In this document: in pieces, positions 14,333-36,845 of the stretch | Layout of the letters: each line of letters starts with the position of its first letter | Position numbering within the stretch: position 1 is the first letter of the stretch | Origin: a virus | Taxonomy: Duplodnaviria; Caudoviricetes | DNA: 64,000 nt | Strand: one strand, 5' to 3' | IMG/VR virus record: IMGVR_UViG_3300021387_000688 | Notes under the pieces: generated by a model | What the model was told of the DNA's origin: nothing | What the model saw: only the letters and a program-made list of their open reading frames with translations | The model's database searches: none | Program-made: the position numbers and the translations under genes

Positions 14333-15895
14333 TTACATCTCCTCTTTAGACAGCTCTACATTTTTAACCATTCTGTACAGCTGAATTTTATCAGTAACTC
14401 CCTGATCAATCTGAATACCGAAAGCTACGTCCAGCATCTTTCTAAAGATTGGACCTGGCTTTCTACCGAATTTAATTAAATCATCTCCTGTCAGAATTGG
14501 TTTAGGAACTTCCATTTCCATAGCTTTAATTACTCGAGGATCTTGCATAATTTCCGCTACACAACCCCTTTCATCAAAACCTGCCATTTTGATTCCACCC
14601 CTTTCATCTGCTAATGCAACTAACATTATTTCCTTAAACTTTGGATGCTTAACAAACTTCAGGATGTCATGGAAACGGTTATGGCTAGCCAATTCGTGCG
14701 CCGACATGTGATGCGCAACCATACTACAAATAAAATGAGTTTCTTCGTTACTCATTCCTAATGCTTTACAGAATTGTTCTGCAGGTTCAATTCCTCTTTC
14801 CGGATGCTCGTTTACAACTGGAACTTCTTCTGCAAATTCTCTTCCATCAAAAGTAAAAGATTTCATTCTTGTACCCTGATGCTGGCAGTGAGCCTTTCCA
14901 ATATCGTGCAGAATTGCTCCCAGAACTAACAGGAACCTTTCTTCTTCATCTTCGAAGTTGACATTGATTGAATCAATTCCTTTTCCTTCAAAAATGATAC
15001 CATGCATTGCTTTCCATGTCAGTAAAGTATGGGCTAAAACTGTACCGTGATCAACTGGAGTGTAACCTCTAAAGTCTTTCTGCTCCCAAATCCATTCTTC
15101 TTTACCTTCTGGGTTTAAGAAAATAGAACCTTCAGCATGCCATCTCCAAGCTTGCTCAATTGTATCCATTTCATCGAAGATCTGCTGTAATCCAATATCT
15201 TCCCAAACCTTTAAATCAACGCCAGCCTGGAATGCAATTGAATCGTGAGTAAAGAATTTACCTGCAAAAATCTGTTTCAGTTCTTTCAGTTTTCTTTCTT
15301 TTGAAACTCCACCGAAGTCAATTCCAGAAGACATTTCAACCATTTCTGGAGAAGTGTATGGATTTGAAAAACCTTTCTGAGCTAAGAATCTTACAAATCT
15401 AAAAGCTCTTAAAGGATCTTCAGATAATCTTTCTTTCGGGTCTCCAACAAATCTTAATACCTTAGCCTTTACATCTGCAATACCCTGACCGGTTGGATCA
15501 ATAATATCTCCTTTTGAATCTTCGTACATTGCATTGATTGTAAAGTCTCTACGTTCAGCATCTTCTTTAATAGAAGCGTTTAATGAAATTGTTGGATGTC
15601 TTCCTTTTGAAGTATCCTTTCTAAAAGTTGCAATCTCAATTTCTTCTAACTTTCCATTAATATCAATTAATGGCATTGTAACTCCAAACTGTTCAGAGTT
15701 GTTAGAAACATTTGAGAATTTAGAAAAGATTGTATGTAAGTCAGATGGCTGCGCATCTGTAGTGATGTCGAAGTCGTGAGGTTCTTTACCTAACATTCTA
15801 TCACGTACACATCCTCCTACAAAGTAAGCTTTGAAGCCTGCTTTTTCGATAGGTGAGAATACTTTGCTTATTAACTGTTCCTTGATATCTGTCAT
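14333..15895 (-). CDS. cca: CCA-adding tRNA nucleotidyltransferase with HD domain
   Basis: VGGCVRD, DFDITT, EIATFR, EDAERRDFTINA, EDPLRAFR, SKER; HD motif LHDIGK; leaderless start at MTDIKE. Confidence 0.92.
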   Translation of the reverse strand: MTDIKEQLISKVFSPIEKAGFKAYFVGGCVRDRMLGKEPHDFDITTDAQPSDLHTIFSKFSNVSNNSEQFGVTMPLIDINGKLEEIEIATFRKDTSKGRHPTISLNASIKEDAERRDFTINAMYEDSKGDIIDPTGQGIADVKAKVLRFVGDPKERLSEDPLRAFRFVRFLAQKGFSNPYTSPEMVEMSSGIDFGGVSKERKLKELKQIFAGKFFTHDSIAFQAGVDLKVWEDIGLQQIFDEMDTIEQAWRWHAEGSIFLNPEGKEEWIWEQKDFRGYTPVDHGTVLAHTLLTWKAMHGIIFEGKGIDSINVNFEDEEERFLLVLGAILHDIGKAHCQHQGTRMKSFTFDGREFAEEVPVVNEHPERGIEPAEQFCKALGMSNEETHFICSMVAHHMSAHELASHNRFHDILKFVKHPKFKEIMLVALADERGGIKMAGFDERGCVAEIMQDPRVIKAMEMEVPKPILTGDDLIKFGRKPGPIFRKMLDVAFGIQIDQGVTDKIQLYRMVKNVELSKEEM

Positions 15896-15901
15896 GTTAA
15901 T

Positions 15902-15936
15902 AATATAGCAATTACCCGATTCCGAAAGTTCCAAAA
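15902..15936 (-). promoter_or_regulatory. Early-type promoter, leaderless
   Basis: TTTTGGAAC-N20-TATATT-N6-ATG. Confidence 0.75.
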
Positions 15937-15968
15937 AGTTAACTAGGTAAAGAAAAAAGTATCTTTTT

Positions 15969-15976
15969 ACTATTTA
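15969..15976 (+). promoter_or_regulatory. Late-type promoter
   Basis: ACTATTTA-ATTT-ATG. Confidence 0.55.
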
Positions 15977-15980
15977 ATTT

Positions 15981-16859
15981 ATGAGAATAAAAGAAGCTTA
16001 CATGGAAAATACCTACGGGTATCATTTAAGTCCTTATAGATTTTCTGAACCTAAAATCAATTATAAAGCAGGTTTCGGAACTAGTTTTTACGGGGCTGGT
16101 TTTTATATAACTTTAGATAAAGATGTACTTGAGGTAATAAAAGGCGAAGCTCAAGATATATTTGCAGAGTATTTTATTTATACAATTCAAGTAGATGAAA
16201 ATGCAAATATAGTTGATGAAGGTGAAGAGGATGGTTTACAGTTGTATGCAGATCTTGTAGACCAATTCGATGGAGACGAAGTTAAAGCATCTGCAGAAAT
16301 GGTGAAAAGAGGTATCGACGGGCTCCTTTATTACAGTGAAGAAGATGGACATTCAATTGTATTCTACAATCCAAAAATGGCAAAAATAGTTCACACAGAA
16401 TATCACGAAGGTTGGGGCGAAAGAAGTGAATTGAATGAAGGTAAGCTTAAGAAAACAATTATTGCCACTATGTTGGCTTTAGGATTAGCTACTAGTGCCC
16501 ATGCCGCCGCCAAGAATTTATACGGTATGTCAGAAAAAGAATTTACAACTCATGTAAACAGTGTATATAAGGCTATAGAAAATACTGCGGGTACAGATTC
16601 CGATATAGATGTATGGAGTTTTAAAAGTAAAAAATATTACGTAATGAGTAAAGACGCAGTTGAAAAATATTTGAAATCTATGCAAAAAAAGTTTGAATGT
16701 AACAGGTATTCAGCTGAAGCTATACTAATAACCACAGCTATATGTTATGATTTTGATTTTGAAAACGACGCGATAAATGCATTTGAAAATAAAGAGCTTG
16801 TAAAGCAAAAATTAAAAGCTAATAAAGAGGCCGGTATACAAAAAACAGGCTGTTGGTAA
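15981..16859 (+). CDS. Putative virion polyprotein: ART-like domain plus internal signal-peptide module
   Basis: MRIKE leader; GYHLS...FYGAGFYIT...RGIDGL...IVFYNP; then LNE-GKLKKTIIATMLALGLATSAHAA. Confidence 0.6.
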   Translation: MRIKEAYMENTYGYHLSPYRFSEPKINYKAGFGTSFYGAGFYITLDKDVLEVIKGEAQDIFAEYFIYTIQVDENANIVDEGEEDGLQLYADLVDQFDGDEVKASAEMVKRGIDGLLYYSEEDGHSIVFYNPKMAKIVHTEYHEGWGERSELNEGKLKKTIIATMLALGLATSAHAAAKNLYGMSEKEFTTHVNSVYKAIENTAGTDSDIDVWSFKSKKYYVMSKDAVEKYLKSMQKKFECNRYSAEAILITTAICYDFDFENDAINAFENKELVKQKLKANKEAGIQKTGCW

Positions 16860-16864
16860 TAATT

Positions 16865-16895
16865 AAAAGGTACTTCAAAAAGAAGTACCTTTTTT
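16865..16895. terminator. Bidirectional terminator
   Basis: AAAAGGTACTTC-AAAAA-GAAGTACCTTTT between convergent genes. Confidence 0.9.
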
Positions 16896-16901
16896 ATTTC
16901 C

Positions 16902-18686
16902 TTACAACTTTGCAATCAATCTATCAATATCTTTTTTAAGTTCTTCTATAGAATAAGAACTCCATCCTCCGCGCCTATCTTTTTCATTGTAAAGGTAGAG
17001 TTGAGCTTGTGTATCAGTAGAGGAAATATAAGCTACTACATATCTTCCTGGAACCTCTGAATCTTCAAATCTCATTTCAGTGTCTCCATCTTTATCTGGA
17101 CCTTCTTTTACTTTTTTGAAATTGATTGATTTCATTTCCTTTTCTATAAGGTCTTTAGCTACAGGAATGAAAGCTTTTGCTTTTTGTCTTCTTTCATATC
17201 CCCATGGATCTTCCAACTGTTCAAGAGGTTCTCCTAAATAGTTTTCAGCATCGTCTGGCAAGTTATCATTAAACAAATTTGAATTATAAGCAGAAGCTCT
17301 ACCTGCTTTTCCGAAAGAATGCATGTTAGATCTCAAGGCATCCTTTACAGCATCCCCTTTCCATGCAATCTTATAATGGGTATCGTACCCCCAACCAGAA
17401 CCATATCCTTTCTTTCTACCAACCTGGTCTACAAGATTGAAAGTGATTACATCTTCTTCATCATACTTTCCTTTCATAGCCATTTGATATTTCTTTGGAG
17501 AAATAATAGAATCGAAATTCCAAGAACCCCAAATGGAATCATCTACACGATATTCTTTAGAAACTAAAACTGCTTTGGCTTTACGTCTCTTTTCATCAAT
17601 TTCAATAATTACATAGTATTCAGGATTTTCATTAGAATCCTTTCTACCGATAGAAACGATGTCCCCTACTTCCAAACCTTTGAATTTGTTGTAACCTGCA
17701 GTATTACCATATACTAAATGGTCCCCGTCAACCTGAACTGTATACTCTTCATACTCGCGACCATCTTCAGTAGAATCTTCAGAAATTGTAAACTCTTCTG
17801 GAAATGAAACACCTGCACATGTTAAAGCATCCCAAACAATTTCATAGTTTTCAAATCTTTTAGAAGCTCTATCGTAATCAGATCCTTTGAAAATTTTATC
17901 ATTGAAAGAAATAGAATCTTCTACATCATATTCATCATATTCCGGTCCTTCTTTATGATAAGTACCTAAGAAAAATTCCCCCTTAAGTCTCCTACCATCA
18001 ATTTCGATTCCGGTTTTAATAATATTGTCAAACCATTTTTTAATTATACGGGATTCATAAATACGGCCATGTACTACAATTGTATAATCACCGTCTTTAA
18101 TATCAGCCCAAGTTCCTTTGTAAACTTTATCTGCATTTTTATTAAAGAATTTTTTAAGGTCTTTGATTCTTTCACTTGGACCTGAATATCCAGTCATTCC
18201 TCTATACAGCTGAGTATCCCAGAAACGATTTGGATTCTTTGTTACATTGTCATAAATATCAAATTGTCCAGGAGAAGTAAGAATTGCCCACTTAATAGTT
18301 TTTCTTGGGCGTTCATCCATATCATCCAATTCCTGATCTGTATACTTGTATTCTTCAACATCTGGATCATTTACAACTGGTTGCCAAGATTTATAAGTAC
18401 GCATATCAGTTCTTCCGTATTCTTCAGGGAAAGTATAATACTCAACTCCTGAACCATCAATGATTGGAAGATTTAATTCTTTTGACATTTCGTGAGCATA
18501 TTCCAAGGCATCTTCTACAATTGTATGGCCCTCAGTTGGCTTATAATACCCATATGTATATTCTTGGGTATCTACTCTTTTATCGTTTTGCCAAACTTCA
18601 ACTTTAACTGAATCTGCGTTTAGGTGGGAGAAAGGTATTAACCAAATACCATCTTTATGGACAAAGTGTTCCTGTAATTTTCTCAT
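16902..18686 (-). CDS. Putative capsid-packaged internal protein
   Basis: MRKLQE leader; ACTAATTT at 18705-18712. Confidence 0.6.
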   Translation of the reverse strand: MRKLQEHFVHKDGIWLIPFSHLNADSVKVEVWQNDKRVDTQEYTYGYYKPTEGHTIVEDALEYAHEMSKELNLPIIDGSGVEYYTFPEEYGRTDMRTYKSWQPVVNDPDVEEYKYTDQELDDMDERPRKTIKWAILTSPGQFDIYDNVTKNPNRFWDTQLYRGMTGYSGPSERIKDLKKFFNKNADKVYKGTWADIKDGDYTIVVHGRIYESRIIKKWFDNIIKTGIEIDGRRLKGEFFLGTYHKEGPEYDEYDVEDSISFNDKIFKGSDYDRASKRFENYEIVWDALTCAGVSFPEEFTISEDSTEDGREYEEYTVQVDGDHLVYGNTAGYNKFKGLEVGDIVSIGRKDSNENPEYYVIIEIDEKRRKAKAVLVSKEYRVDDSIWGSWNFDSIISPKKYQMAMKGKYDEEDVITFNLVDQVGRKKGYGSGWGYDTHYKIAWKGDAVKDALRSNMHSFGKAGRASAYNSNLFNDNLPDDAENYLGEPLEQLEDPWGYERRQKAKAFIPVAKDLIEKEMKSINFKKVKEGPDKDGDTEMRFEDSEVPGRYVVAYISSTDTQAQLYLYNEKDRRGGWSSYSIEELKKDIDRLIAKL

Positions 18687-18707: not shown

Positions 18708-18971
18708 TTAGTTAATCCATTCAGGACAAGTTAAAATTCCTTGATTGTACAATTCTACCCACTTCTGTTTTTGCCTTTTAATCTCTTCTTTCCTTTCTAA
18801 CTTCTCTTGTTTCTTTTCTAACTTTCTTTGTTTCTTTTCTGCCAAGTACTTAGAATAAGGATGATTTGGAGCTTCTTTAGGCAATACAATATTGTAAAGA
18901 TACCGATTGTAAATAATTGTTAACACAATATTACTAAGAATGATAGATCCTATTAAAATCAACTTTTCCAT
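18708..18971 (-). CDS. Membrane-anchored basic protein
   Basis: Start moved to MEKLIL; one TM then K/E coil. Confidence 0.7.
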   Translation of the reverse strand: MEKLILIGSIILSNIVLTIIYNRYLYNIVLPKEAPNHPYSKYLAEKKQRKLEKKQEKLERKEEIKRQKQKWVELYNQGILTCPEWIN

Positions 18972-21410: not shown

Positions 21411-22058
21411 TTATTTTTCCACGCGTTTTCTAGTTATACTTTTTCTGGAGTTATTTCTATCTATCTTGGCTTCATCCAAATCTTCGTCATCTTCGTCATC
21501 TTCATTCCAAGATTCTACATAAGCATCAAGATCTGCTTTAGCGGCCTTGAAAAGTTTTTTATTACCTTTTACATAATCTATGAAGTCAGAATCGTCTTCA
21601 AAATCATCCTCATCATAAGAATCCCAATAAGGATCATTTTCATCAAAGTTATCTGTAAAGGCGCAACAACAACCATCCTTGAAGTCTGTGTCTCCCCAAA
21701 GATCTGTATCTCCATAATATTCACCCCATCCCAATTCCTCTGCATCATTAATACCTACTAAACGATCCCATACGGCTTGAGCTTTAGGCGGCCAATCTTT
21801 ATCTTCTTTTAAAGATTTCTTAGATTCAACTAATCCGCGTTTTCTGTAAATATAATCCAAAGCCGTTCCTGGAGTTGGTTTCCAAGTTGCAGCAACTTCT
21901 GCATCATCCTCTCCTTCTTCCTCTTCATAACCTGAAGCATCTTCAGTAACGCAAGGTCCCAAAGCTACATCGGCAAGTACATCATCTACTCTACCTCTAA
22001 TTTCGGCTTCATCGTCGTTAGCTCCGATTTTAACCAATACTGTTAAATACTTAATCAT
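21411..22058 (-). CDS. Acidic two-module protein with ESKKSLKE linker
   Basis: GLVESKKSLKE-D between acidic modules. Confidence 0.65.
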   Translation of the reverse strand: MIKYLTVLVKIGANDDEAEIRGRVDDVLADVALGPCVTEDASGYEEEEGEDDAEVAATWKPTPGTALDYIYRKRGLVESKKSLKEDKDWPPKAQAVWDRLVGINDAEELGWGEYYGDTDLWGDTDFKDGCCCAFTDNFDENDPYWDSYDEDDFEDDSDFIDYVKGNKKLFKAAKADLDAYVESWNEDDEDDEDLDEAKIDRNNSRKSITRKRVEK

Positions 22059-35153: not shown

Positions 35154-36845
35154 ATGGTATTAAAAGTATATAGAGTTGGTGATTTAGATAAATACCAAAG
35201 AAAAGCAGATTCAATGTATCAAATGTTTGGAAGAAGTACAGGTTACTTTGGCACTGGTTATTACTTTTGTACAAAGCCAGAATATTGTTGTACAATGACA
35301 AGAGAAAATGATCCTTTGTATAGACTTACATTAAAGGAAGGTATCAAACTTATAAAAGGTACTCAAAAATTACACGACAAATTAAAAGCTTGGAATGCTT
35401 TTATGATTAACTATCCTCGTCTCTTGAGTAAAGATTTAATCGATAAGGAAAAACGGTTTGCACATTATGCAATAGATTATTATACAGAGCGCCAACTTAT
35501 AGGTTCGAAATTAAAAGAGGATTTTGAAGTTTGGGGAGACTGGGCAGACAATTGGAAAGAATATCTTAGCCGAGAATATGGTATAAGAGAAATGATAAAA
35601 CGTGCAAAAGATATACCAGATTTGGAAGAGTTTGCAAATATATTAGAGAGTGACAAACCTGACTTTGATAGGATAGATGAAATCCAAAAAGAAAATGAAG
35701 ATTTATTTGATTACGAATATTTAAGTTCTATGAGAGATTTGGTTTTCGATGTTTTAGAACTTTTACCTATTCAATTGAATACAGATACGGAAACAATAAA
35801 AATGGCGGCTGATCATATTTACGAAACTTATGAAAGTTTTTATGAAAACGGAAGATTGAAACATGATTCGGATTTATCTGAAGACGATTCCTTTCCTACT
35901 CAATTGTTAAAGATTTTAGGATATGAAGGCGTTTGGCCAAGCAATGAATGTGACAATACAACTTATGGGGGAGTAATATTTGATTTAGAAAATTTCACTT
36001 ACGAAAGAATTGCAGACCACGCTAAAGATTATATTAAGAAAGATTTGAAAGAATCTACAGAAACATTAAAACAATTTAAAGTTTTATATCATGGTTCTAA
36101 AAATGGGGAATTAAGAAAAAATGAAAAACATAGCTACAATTGTTTGTATGTGACACCCGTTTTTGCTTATGCTGCAATGTACAGTACAGATTCTGATTCT
36201 ACACATGGTTGTGTTTTTGAAATGAAACCTGTTAGAGACTTAAACATTTTTGATGCAAATGATGAAGGGGCTTTAGAACAATTAAAAGCAAAAGTAGAAG
36301 AATTAAATCCTGAAAATACTTTAGTAAGAAGAATCAAATGGGAAGACTTGAAAACAAAAGATTGGAGTTCTGTTTGTTTCAAGCAAGATGAGGTAAGGGA
36401 TAAATTATTACTCGAATCTGTAAAAGCTTTAGGATATGATGGTTATATAAATACCGAGTGGGATGAAGATTGCGCTGAATGGTATGCTAGAGGGTTAGGC
36501 GGTTGCGGTAAAGTTGTAAATACAACTTCTATTGGAATATTTAATGAAGACCTTTTAGAGATAGTCGATGAGAAATATTTTGAAGATTATTCAGACGATG
36601 AGTTATTTAATGAATGCCATCAAGCCGATGAGGATTTGTTTATAACCTTTTTGCAGGATGAAGGTTTTGATGATTACTATTACGATAGTGAAGAAGAAGC
36701 TAAAAAATGGGCAGCCAATAACTTGCTATTCTTAGACGTAGATGAAGTAAATGATTTGGTTGACGAATATGCAAGTTATTCCGATAGGGAAGATGACTGG
36801 GATGAAGAGGAAGATGAAGAGGAAGATGAAGAGGAAGATGATTAG
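35154..36845 (+). CDS. Tandem ADP-ribosyltransferase-like protein, putative virion polyprotein
   Basis: VYRVG..GYFGTGYYFCT..LGYEGV..GVIFD; DLKES; LYHGS..LYVTP..YAAMY..LNIFD..LGYDGY..IGIFN; acidic tail. Confidence 0.65.
   Translation: MVLKVYRVGDLDKYQRKADSMYQMFGRSTGYFGTGYYFCTKPEYCCTMTRENDPLYRLTLKEGIKLIKGTQKLHDKLKAWNAFMINYPRLLSKDLIDKEKRFAHYAIDYYTERQLIGSKLKEDFEVWGDWADNWKEYLSREYGIREMIKRAKDIPDLEEFANILESDKPDFDRIDEIQKENEDLFDYEYLSSMRDLVFDVLELLPIQLNTDTETIKMAADHIYETYESFYENGRLKHDSDLSEDDSFPTQLLKILGYEGVWPSNECDNTTYGGVIFDLENFTYERIADHAKDYIKKDLKESTETLKQFKVLYHGSKNGELRKNEKHSYNCLYVTPVFAYAAMYSTDSDSTHGCVFEMKPVRDLNIFDANDEGALEQLKAKVEELNPENTLVRRIKWEDLKTKDWSSVCFKQDEVRDKLLLESVKALGYDGYINTEWDEDCAEWYARGLGGCGKVVNTTSIGIFNEDLLEIVDEKYFEDYSDDELFNECHQADEDLFITFLQDEGFDDYYYDSEEEAKKWAANNLLFLDVDEVNDLVDEYASYSDREDDWDEEEDEEEDEEEDD

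Follow-up and report, generated by a model that had tools for sequence, protein, structure and literature searches.

A plus-strand gene in the 64,000-nucleotide stretch of phage DNA analyzed here (the window, by which we mean that whole stretch) encodes a 292-aa protein, P0001 (15981-16859), in which a Sec-type signal-like segment lies in mid-protein, directly behind a candidate head-protease site. The best explanation is that the gene is a separately transcribed member of a leader-bearing, linker-punctuated, cargo-type class, with a leader and an ART/RES-like enzyme module followed by a second module built for the cell envelope, the latter consisting, as judged from its sequence, of a Sec-type signal and a small domain with a probable disulfide. 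By this means, a giant phage of the rumen, uncultured so far, may deliver a ready-made protein that is exported by the newly infected cell. The route that would achieve this, a cut in the capsid followed by export after entry, is a tentative reading that we put forward with less than even confidence, and it is weighed below against several others.

The gene is the sole plus-strand gene within a long run of minus-strand genes. A promoter-like motif of the ACTAWWT class, ACTATTTAATTT (15969-15980, plus strand), abuts its ATG, so that the transcript is probably leaderless; motifs of the ACTATTTAATTT type are kept upstream of the gene in 5 loci. Translation starts in this phage are otherwise either preceded by strong AGGAG-type sites or leaderless. 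A strong intrinsic terminator (16865-16893, plus strand) is common to this gene and the convergent gene at 16902-18686 (minus strand) and is kept in loci L006 and L007. The ACTAWWT class also precedes leader-bearing genes at 18712 (minus strand), 25281, 30926, 32445, 35142, and 37456 (minus strand), whereas CTATATT takes its place ahead of the DNA ligase and CCA-adding enzyme genes. Within the window, no structural gene ties the ACTAWWT class to late expression.

The convergent neighbor (16902-18686, minus strand), which adjoins the gene in L006 and L007 too, encodes a 594-aa product with the leader MRKLQEH and a ACTAATTT motif; no family match was found for this product, and it is a candidate for another cargo-type protein. 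On the other side, the intergenic region 15893-15980 is divergent, with ACTATTTAATTT directed toward the plus-strand gene and CTATATTATTAAC abutting an ATG at 15895 (minus strand). Because CTATATTATTAAC directly precedes the ATG there, the CCA-adding enzyme probably starts at this position (MTDIKEQ, leaderless) and not at the upstream TTG at 15934. Its first residues, MTDIKE, contain I-K-E, possibly by chance. In a 64%-identical relative (L001:6001-8526), the gene lies head to tail upstream of the CCA-enzyme gene, whereas the two are divergent in the window (14333-16859), and a small transcription unit has therefore been inverted or reinserted. In the relative L002 (8175-10960), the CCA-adding enzyme is encoded in two parts, a PolyA_pol head gene and an HD gene; the opposite-strand 323-aa gene between them may be an inserted mobile gene.

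The product begins with M-R-I-K-E (15981-15995, plus strand), a candidate capsid-targeting sequence or propeptide ending in [IVF]-x-E that is in frame in all nine loci. Its variants there are MRIKEA, MRVKEA, MRIKES, MRIEES, MKSIKES, and MKFKEA, with [IVF]-x-E always kept. Written with an arrow for the candidate cut (MRIKE↓A), the leader has the form of the short N-terminal propeptides of T4-type cargo, which end in L/I-x-E. The same peptide recurs as an internal linker in other proteins, as K-I-K-E-A in P0007 and as K-M-K-E-A in P0014 to P0018. Leader-bearing genes of the window with an ACTAWWT motif include those whose products begin MRKLQEH, (M)KLLKES, MRVLKEN, and MRTFNES, and the polyprotein genes at 25-37 kb. 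Genes of the leader class contain the motif [LIMF][KRNQT]E[SGDNA] at a rate of 6.85 per 1,000 aa and other ORFs at 1.69, a roughly 4-fold excess. In kind of leader and type of promoter, then, the gene resembles the linker-rich polyprotein genes of the window, which we take as putative cargo genes. No protease match was found among the window ORFs scanned.

Behind the leader lies an N-terminal module (M8-E153; 16002-16439, plus strand) that is shared, at 56-97% identity, by 17 metagenome proteins and may have an ART/RES fold. The initial annotation had placed an ART-like domain at about 15981-16410; the module in fact ends at 16439, and its likeness to ART proteins comes from weak fold and language-model matches. 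P0001 had no match in Pfam or PHROG at E ≤ 1, ART-PolyVal included, and comparison of the N-terminal module with PDB sequence profiles returned nothing relevant. The AlphaFold2 (AF2) model of the module is poor (pLDDT, 51). A Foldseek search with this pLDDT 51 model nonetheless placed ART-fold proteins in 10 of the first 11 rows, among them NatT, MbcT, VPA0770, AcrIF11, diphtheria toxin, Xre-RES, and ParT, at E values of 0.013 to 0.33 and TM scores of about 0.3; VIA-align gave Z scores of 3 or less. Language-model look-alikes from the Atlas (score, 0.91) carry the ART-PolyVal and AcrIF11 families, and the RES family PF08808 aligned with P0019, the most divergent relative, at a subthreshold E value of 0.3 over G-I-D-G-L-x-Y-x-S...S-I-V-x-Y-N-P. 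As candidates for the catalytic triad of the ART/RES superfamily (R-S-E, H-Y-E, or R-E-S), H15, Y42, and E63 do not vary within the closer set, although the model is too poor to place any of them reliably. In the wider alignment (A5), only Y42 (column Y35) of the three is invariant, since E63 is not kept in P0019 and H15 is missing from several rows. Profile comparison by hhalign of the module with the tandem ART-like protein encoded at 35154-36845 and with the first domain of P0014 was not significant. Taken together, these matches make an ART/RES-like fold a reasonable lead rather than an established assignment.

The N-terminal module is also found in other company. In P0014 to P0018 (about 600 aa; e.g., L012:10001-11794), it stands behind a putative ART-like domain (GYRTG ... 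STGYFGTGYYF ... GGVVFE) and a further module that is small and basic, with K-[IM]-K-E-A as the link. As the N-terminal module there follows another candidate ART-like domain, these proteins have the appearance of carrying two enzyme modules in tandem.

The module ends at the joint L151-N-E153 (16431-16439, plus strand), a candidate head-protease site and a point of module exchange. All 17 relatives have [LIMY]-x-E at this position (LNE, LTE, LKE, IEE, LQE, MKE, or YNE), and similarity among the architectural groups stops exactly past the joint Glu. At least four continuations were seen beyond it: the signal module described below; a module with "AYDDAYK...KDKWNLK"; a "ETQKIDVIEKANY" module that has an [FL]-N-E of its own ahead of it; and others. 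The joint fits the cutting rule of T4-type head proteases, and we propose that it is cut. ELNEG, however, does not have the basic context (K-x-[LI]-K-E) of the stereotyped linkers in the window, and L-x-E is a common tripeptide, with about nine instances of [LIVFM]-x-E in the product as a whole.

Directly behind the joint, residues G154-A175 (16440-16505, plus strand) form a segment laid out like a signal for Sec export and type I signal peptidase. The translation across the joint reads ...GWGERSE-LNE-GKLKK-TIIATMLALGLA-TSAHA-AAKNLYG.... The n-region (G154-K158, GKLKK; 16440-16454) has a net charge of +3. The h-region (T159-A170, TIIATMLALGLA; 16455-16490) comprises 11-12 uncharged residues with a Kyte-Doolittle 11-residue mean of 2.15-2.64, and the c-region (T171-A175; 16491-16505) has Ala at both -3 and -1. 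The translation thus bears out the initial description of a complete Sec-like signal, with n-, h-, and c-regions, in mid-protein behind LNE, and this layout is kept in 8 loci.

We compared the segment across seven proteins (P0001 to P0006 and P0013) from these eight loci. Identity in the downstream domain falls to 27-41% while the n/h/c layout persists. K-L-x-K, T-M-L-A-L, Ala at the predicted -1 position, and the His just ahead of that Ala are invariant in all seven, and invariant positions make up 9 of the 22 in the segment versus about 10 of the 117 in the rest of the module. The cleavage-site forms are A-H-A↓A, L-H-A↓F/E/K, and A-H-A↓I, so that the -1 residue is small in every member and the -3 residue is A or L; three members have Pro at -5. 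The core contains no charged residue in any of the eight loci, and 5-6 of the 22 signal codons show synonymous changes between divergent members; these two observations together indicate that the constraint acts on the protein. Invariance of TMLAL is atypical for ordinary signal peptides and hints at a further constraint.

These comparisons bear on the possibility that the segment is a left-over of gene fusion, from a formerly secreted protein, or a buried hydrophobic helix, with no role in export. Modules are shuffled freely in this gene family, as such an origin would have it, and the pattern alone is not beyond chance: a loose n/h/c search found one internal case in 77 nonoverlapping ORFs of the window, and shuffled proteomes of this size yield about 0.7. 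Conservation of the segment is another matter and, going by the aligned relatives, is beyond chance. Across relatives that are 27-41% identical, the segment is the best conserved part of the module and is under purifying selection; its pattern of charges and its core have been kept, along with residues -3 and -1. AF2 leaves the segment detached from the domain, as a helix of low confidence, which also speaks against a buried helix. We consider this explanation improbable.

By hydropathy, the segment does not behave as a plain internal transmembrane (TM) helix, whereas such behavior would have told against the initial annotation. A TM anchor is classically expected to have at least about 19 hydrophobic residues with a Kyte-Doolittle mean of ≥1.6. 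The 19-residue mean of the segment is 1.19-1.58 in all seven proteins, versus 2.38-3.22 for the true TM segments of the window, and a stable anchor was rejected since the mean is below 1.6 in 7 of 7 proteins and the core is just 11-12 residues long. Such features typify a cleavable signal peptide, or a weak segment like the signal-arrest-release (SAR) type, and not a stable anchor. In related phages, the ordinary N-terminal signal peptides (L012:8638-9924 and L012:16021-16842) are far more Leu-rich, so the buried signal is unusually weakly hydrophobic for the phage group. One of these Leu-rich signals, MKKFLSSMLVLLLACALFA, is carried by an Endonuclease_NS protein, possibly a lipoprotein.

Sec signals are N-terminal, whereas this one begins at residue 154, and at about residue 340 in P0013. 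The initial claim that no Met stands ahead of its basic region holds, since no start codon precedes the core save the TTG that encodes the Leu of LNE. Initiation at this TTG (16431) would yield a separate secreted protein beginning M-N-E-G-K-L-K-K..., and such a start would have the sequence AAAGAAG 4 nt upstream and the same TTG in L007. The codon is unconserved, however, being CTG in the 98%-identical L006 and CTA, CTT, or TTA in L001, L008, and L009, and for that reason an internal start was rejected as highly improbable. Phage genes here use strong AGGAG-type sites or leaderless starts, no other start precedes the core, and in P0013 the module sits deep within a polyprotein. A search for an internal sigma-70-like promoter ahead of the signal gave nothing above chance. 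All of this indicates that the signal-like segment is truly internal.

Beyond the signal, the C-terminal domain (A176-W292, 117 aa; 16506-16856, plus strand) ends in GCW and contains a Cys pair (16695-16697 and 16851-16853). Both C239 and C291 are present in six of the proteins and neither is present in P0013. Such covariation fits a disulfide, which we consider probable, and a disulfide would in turn suggest an extracytoplasmic destination, for which the case is thin. AF2 modeled the C-terminal module with a mean pLDDT of 77 over 139 residues, and past the signal the means of 10-residue blocks are mostly 73-94. Searches with this domain recovered no known fold: Foldseek against the PDB gave nothing at E ≤ 0.001 (best row, E = 0.6), VIA-align gave winged-helix-like pieces at noise level (Z ≤ 5.5), and the Atlas search gave a TM score of 0.36 with no feature match. 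Because the domain matches no known fold, the roles in superinfection exclusion or membrane resealing that had been proposed for it at the outset are unsupported.

The whole architecture is common to six proteins, P0001 to P0006, with a further near-identical locus in L011 (JGI metagenome contigs). A profile of the signal module, searched against 1.84 billion representative proteins, found its own cluster and P0013 only; no stand-alone or N-terminal form was present among those representatives, and bacterial species genomes yielded no copy of the module at all. Neither the DNA nor the protein nor its family had a match in the phage GenBank collection or IMG/VR. In P0013, a linker-rich polyprotein of 494 aa, the signal module again comes last, behind LEE↓VSKLQK.... 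In every case the module is last and stands behind a [LIM]-x-E joint at which modules swap. A similar arrangement occurs in a different protein of a related phage, P0020 (L002:5148-5909), which has an internal signal-like segment behind L-E-E (KKLEE↓GN-KLKK-ALLATAMATGLIG). The first 82 residues of P0020 are 50% identical to those of the window ORF 21411-22058 (minus strand), whose unrelated C-terminal part lacks the segment. The P0020 gene is led by a Shine-Dalgarno site and has no typical leader, and its window homolog lies in a minus-strand, noncargo block.

We infer from this anatomy the following route, which draws on T4-type head maturation. The MRIKE leader would take the whole precursor into the prohead, where a T4-type head protease would cut past the Glu of MRIKE and that of LNE. 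With the second of these cuts, at LNE↓G, the released piece would begin at GKLKK... and so with a complete signal peptide; in P0013, a cut at the nearest site, LEE↓VSKLQK, would likewise free the N terminus of the signal. The released piece would be ejected with the DNA, still unfolded, and exported by host SecA/SecYEG, with signal peptidase cutting past AHA. Proteins presumably pass through the tail unfolded, and an unfolded state is what post-translational Sec export needs. On this route, an envelope-bound module would enter the capsid only by riding behind a leader-bearing one, and the absence of a stand-alone form would be expected of a module that rides on the capsid tag of another protein. 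The lack of that form, the fixed last position, and the recurrence behind L-x-E in independent contexts fit export after a capsid cut better than they fit a plain secreted or membrane protein. What holds our confidence down is that L-x-E is so common, that the ELNEG joint departs from the basic linker context, and that P0020 has no typical leader. It is held down further because an internal signal in N-in orientation works without a free N terminus, and because TMLAL suggests an extra constraint.

That internal signals work in this way leads to a rival of nearly equal standing, which we hold to be possible though doubtful, in which the head protease plays no part. Here, the full-length protein would be made late, and the segment, serving the producing cell as a weak SAR-like anchor or an internal signal, would insert N-in/C-out via Sec/YidC. 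The C-terminal domain would reach the periplasm or the surface, perhaps freed by signal peptidase, and the enzyme module would stay at the inner face of the membrane. The positive charges on the N-terminal side of the core give the correct start-transfer orientation, the core resembles that of SAR domains in its many Ala, Gly, Ser, and Thr residues, and a pair of Cys would be at home in a domain outside the cytoplasm. Among viral polyproteins, those of alphaviruses contain internal cleavable signals that work (PMC5580485), and P0020 has its similar segment in a gene without a typical leader. Engagement of Sec or YidC in the producing cell, with no cut, would also compete with packaging, which tells against the capsid route. 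The rival would leave unexplained, though, why the module never occurs as a simple stand-alone secreted protein, why it is the last module of leader- and linker-bearing proteins, and why it starts right past the swap joint in independent contexts. The hydrophobicity of the segment is also below the level of a stable anchor. This rival changes the standing of two claims in the initial annotation. The signal need not be exposed only after cleavage, as a free N terminus is not needed for an internal signal to act as a start-transfer sequence; and, for the same reason, the segment, which had been offered as independent support for cleavage at these motifs, supports it but weakly.

Alternatively, the protein could be packaged and the segment could serve on ejection as a membrane-insertion element, anchoring the enzyme or helping to form a channel, with neither Sec export nor cleavage by signal peptidase. 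It is established that T7-, P22-, and N4-like phages hold in their capsids ejection proteins with membrane-active segments (PMC8954989). The TMLAL core is more conserved than ordinary signals are, and a cyanophage pre-ejectosome chain ranked first in VIA-align and fifth in Foldseek when the N-terminal module was searched, in both cases at noise level. The short core, with its 19-residue hydrophobicity under 1.6, does not fit this role well, and a cleaved signal accounts better for the helix-breaking Pro of three members and for the conserved small residues at -3 and -1. Nor are myovirus-type T4-like phages, to our knowledge, in need of ejected membrane-insertion proteins. We judge a membrane-insertion role to be unlikely.

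Export after a capsid cut would be a new combination on a known theme, in that T4-type processed head cargo appears here with an export address. We know of no T4 head protein that carries an export signal. In T4, gp21 cuts past L/I-x-E, and a 10-residue capsid-targeting sequence (CTS) is enough to load foreign proteins; the ADP-ribosyltransferase Alt, trimmed of propeptides at its N terminus (7 residues) and its C terminus, leaves the capsid together with the DNA (PMC9026906). P0001 is like Alt and the internal proteins IPI-III in having a short N-terminal propeptide that ends in hydrophobic-x-Glu, and would be like Alt in having an ADP-ribosyltransferase-type enzyme as payload if the tentative ART/RES-like fold of its N-terminal module holds. 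Since Alt is cut near its C terminus, it offers a precedent for an internal cut that frees a C-terminal piece (PMC9026906). P0001 has no sequence similarity to Alt or the internal proteins, and, unlike in theirs, the C-terminal piece freed from it would be a complete Sec preprotein.

A protease cut that yields a signal sequence as a new N terminus is known from the alphavirus structural polyprotein, in which autoproteolysis by the capsid protein frees the N terminus of the E3 signal sequence for the translocon (PMC5580485). That system is eukaryotic and cotranslational and is cleaved in cis, whereas here the cut would take place in the capsid and export would follow in another cell after injection. 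P0001, with its several modules and candidate ART-type domain, also recalls the polyvalent proteins of phages and conjugative elements, which are multimodular, contain ART-type domains, and are believed to be delivered with the DNA and processed; the survey describing them makes no mention of a signal peptide or TM segment (Iyer et al. 2017, PMC5512222). P0001 differs from them in that its N-terminal module reaches no Pfam threshold, that of ART-PolyVal included. With Sec/signal peptidase I signals and phage SAR domains (T4 RI and the SAR endolysins), the segment shares its basic, hydrophobic, and small-x-small parts and a weakly hydrophobic Ala/Gly/Ser/Thr core, and the cargo shares with SAR and Sec proteins a probable disulfide. 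Sec and SAR signals start with the initiator Met, at the N terminus, whereas this one lies 153 residues into the protein and has no start codon. In the searchable literature, we found no phage example in which a head protease unmasks an export signal buried within a protein.

Should the signal be used in the producing cell, the product would be an ordinary late protein, secreted or held in the membrane, and unusual for the enzyme domain at its N terminus. The broader proposal, which we regard as speculative and rather doubtful at present, is that giant T4-like phages load complete Sec preproteins into their capsids, with the signal masked in a polyprotein until the head protease cuts, and that, within seconds of entry and ahead of all phage gene expression, the newly infected cell exports them to its envelope. 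If true, this would be a new delivery route, from capsid to cytoplasm to host translocon to envelope. Capsid cargo would then not be confined to cytoplasmic targets such as RNA polymerase and restriction enzymes, since the periplasm and surface could be reached through host export, and the envelope could be changed immediately and without transcription, for example by excluding rivals, blocking receptors, or defending the wall. It would also supply a sequence rule for metagenomes, namely an export signal directly behind a head-protease motif, and a design principle for T4-type protein delivery vehicles.
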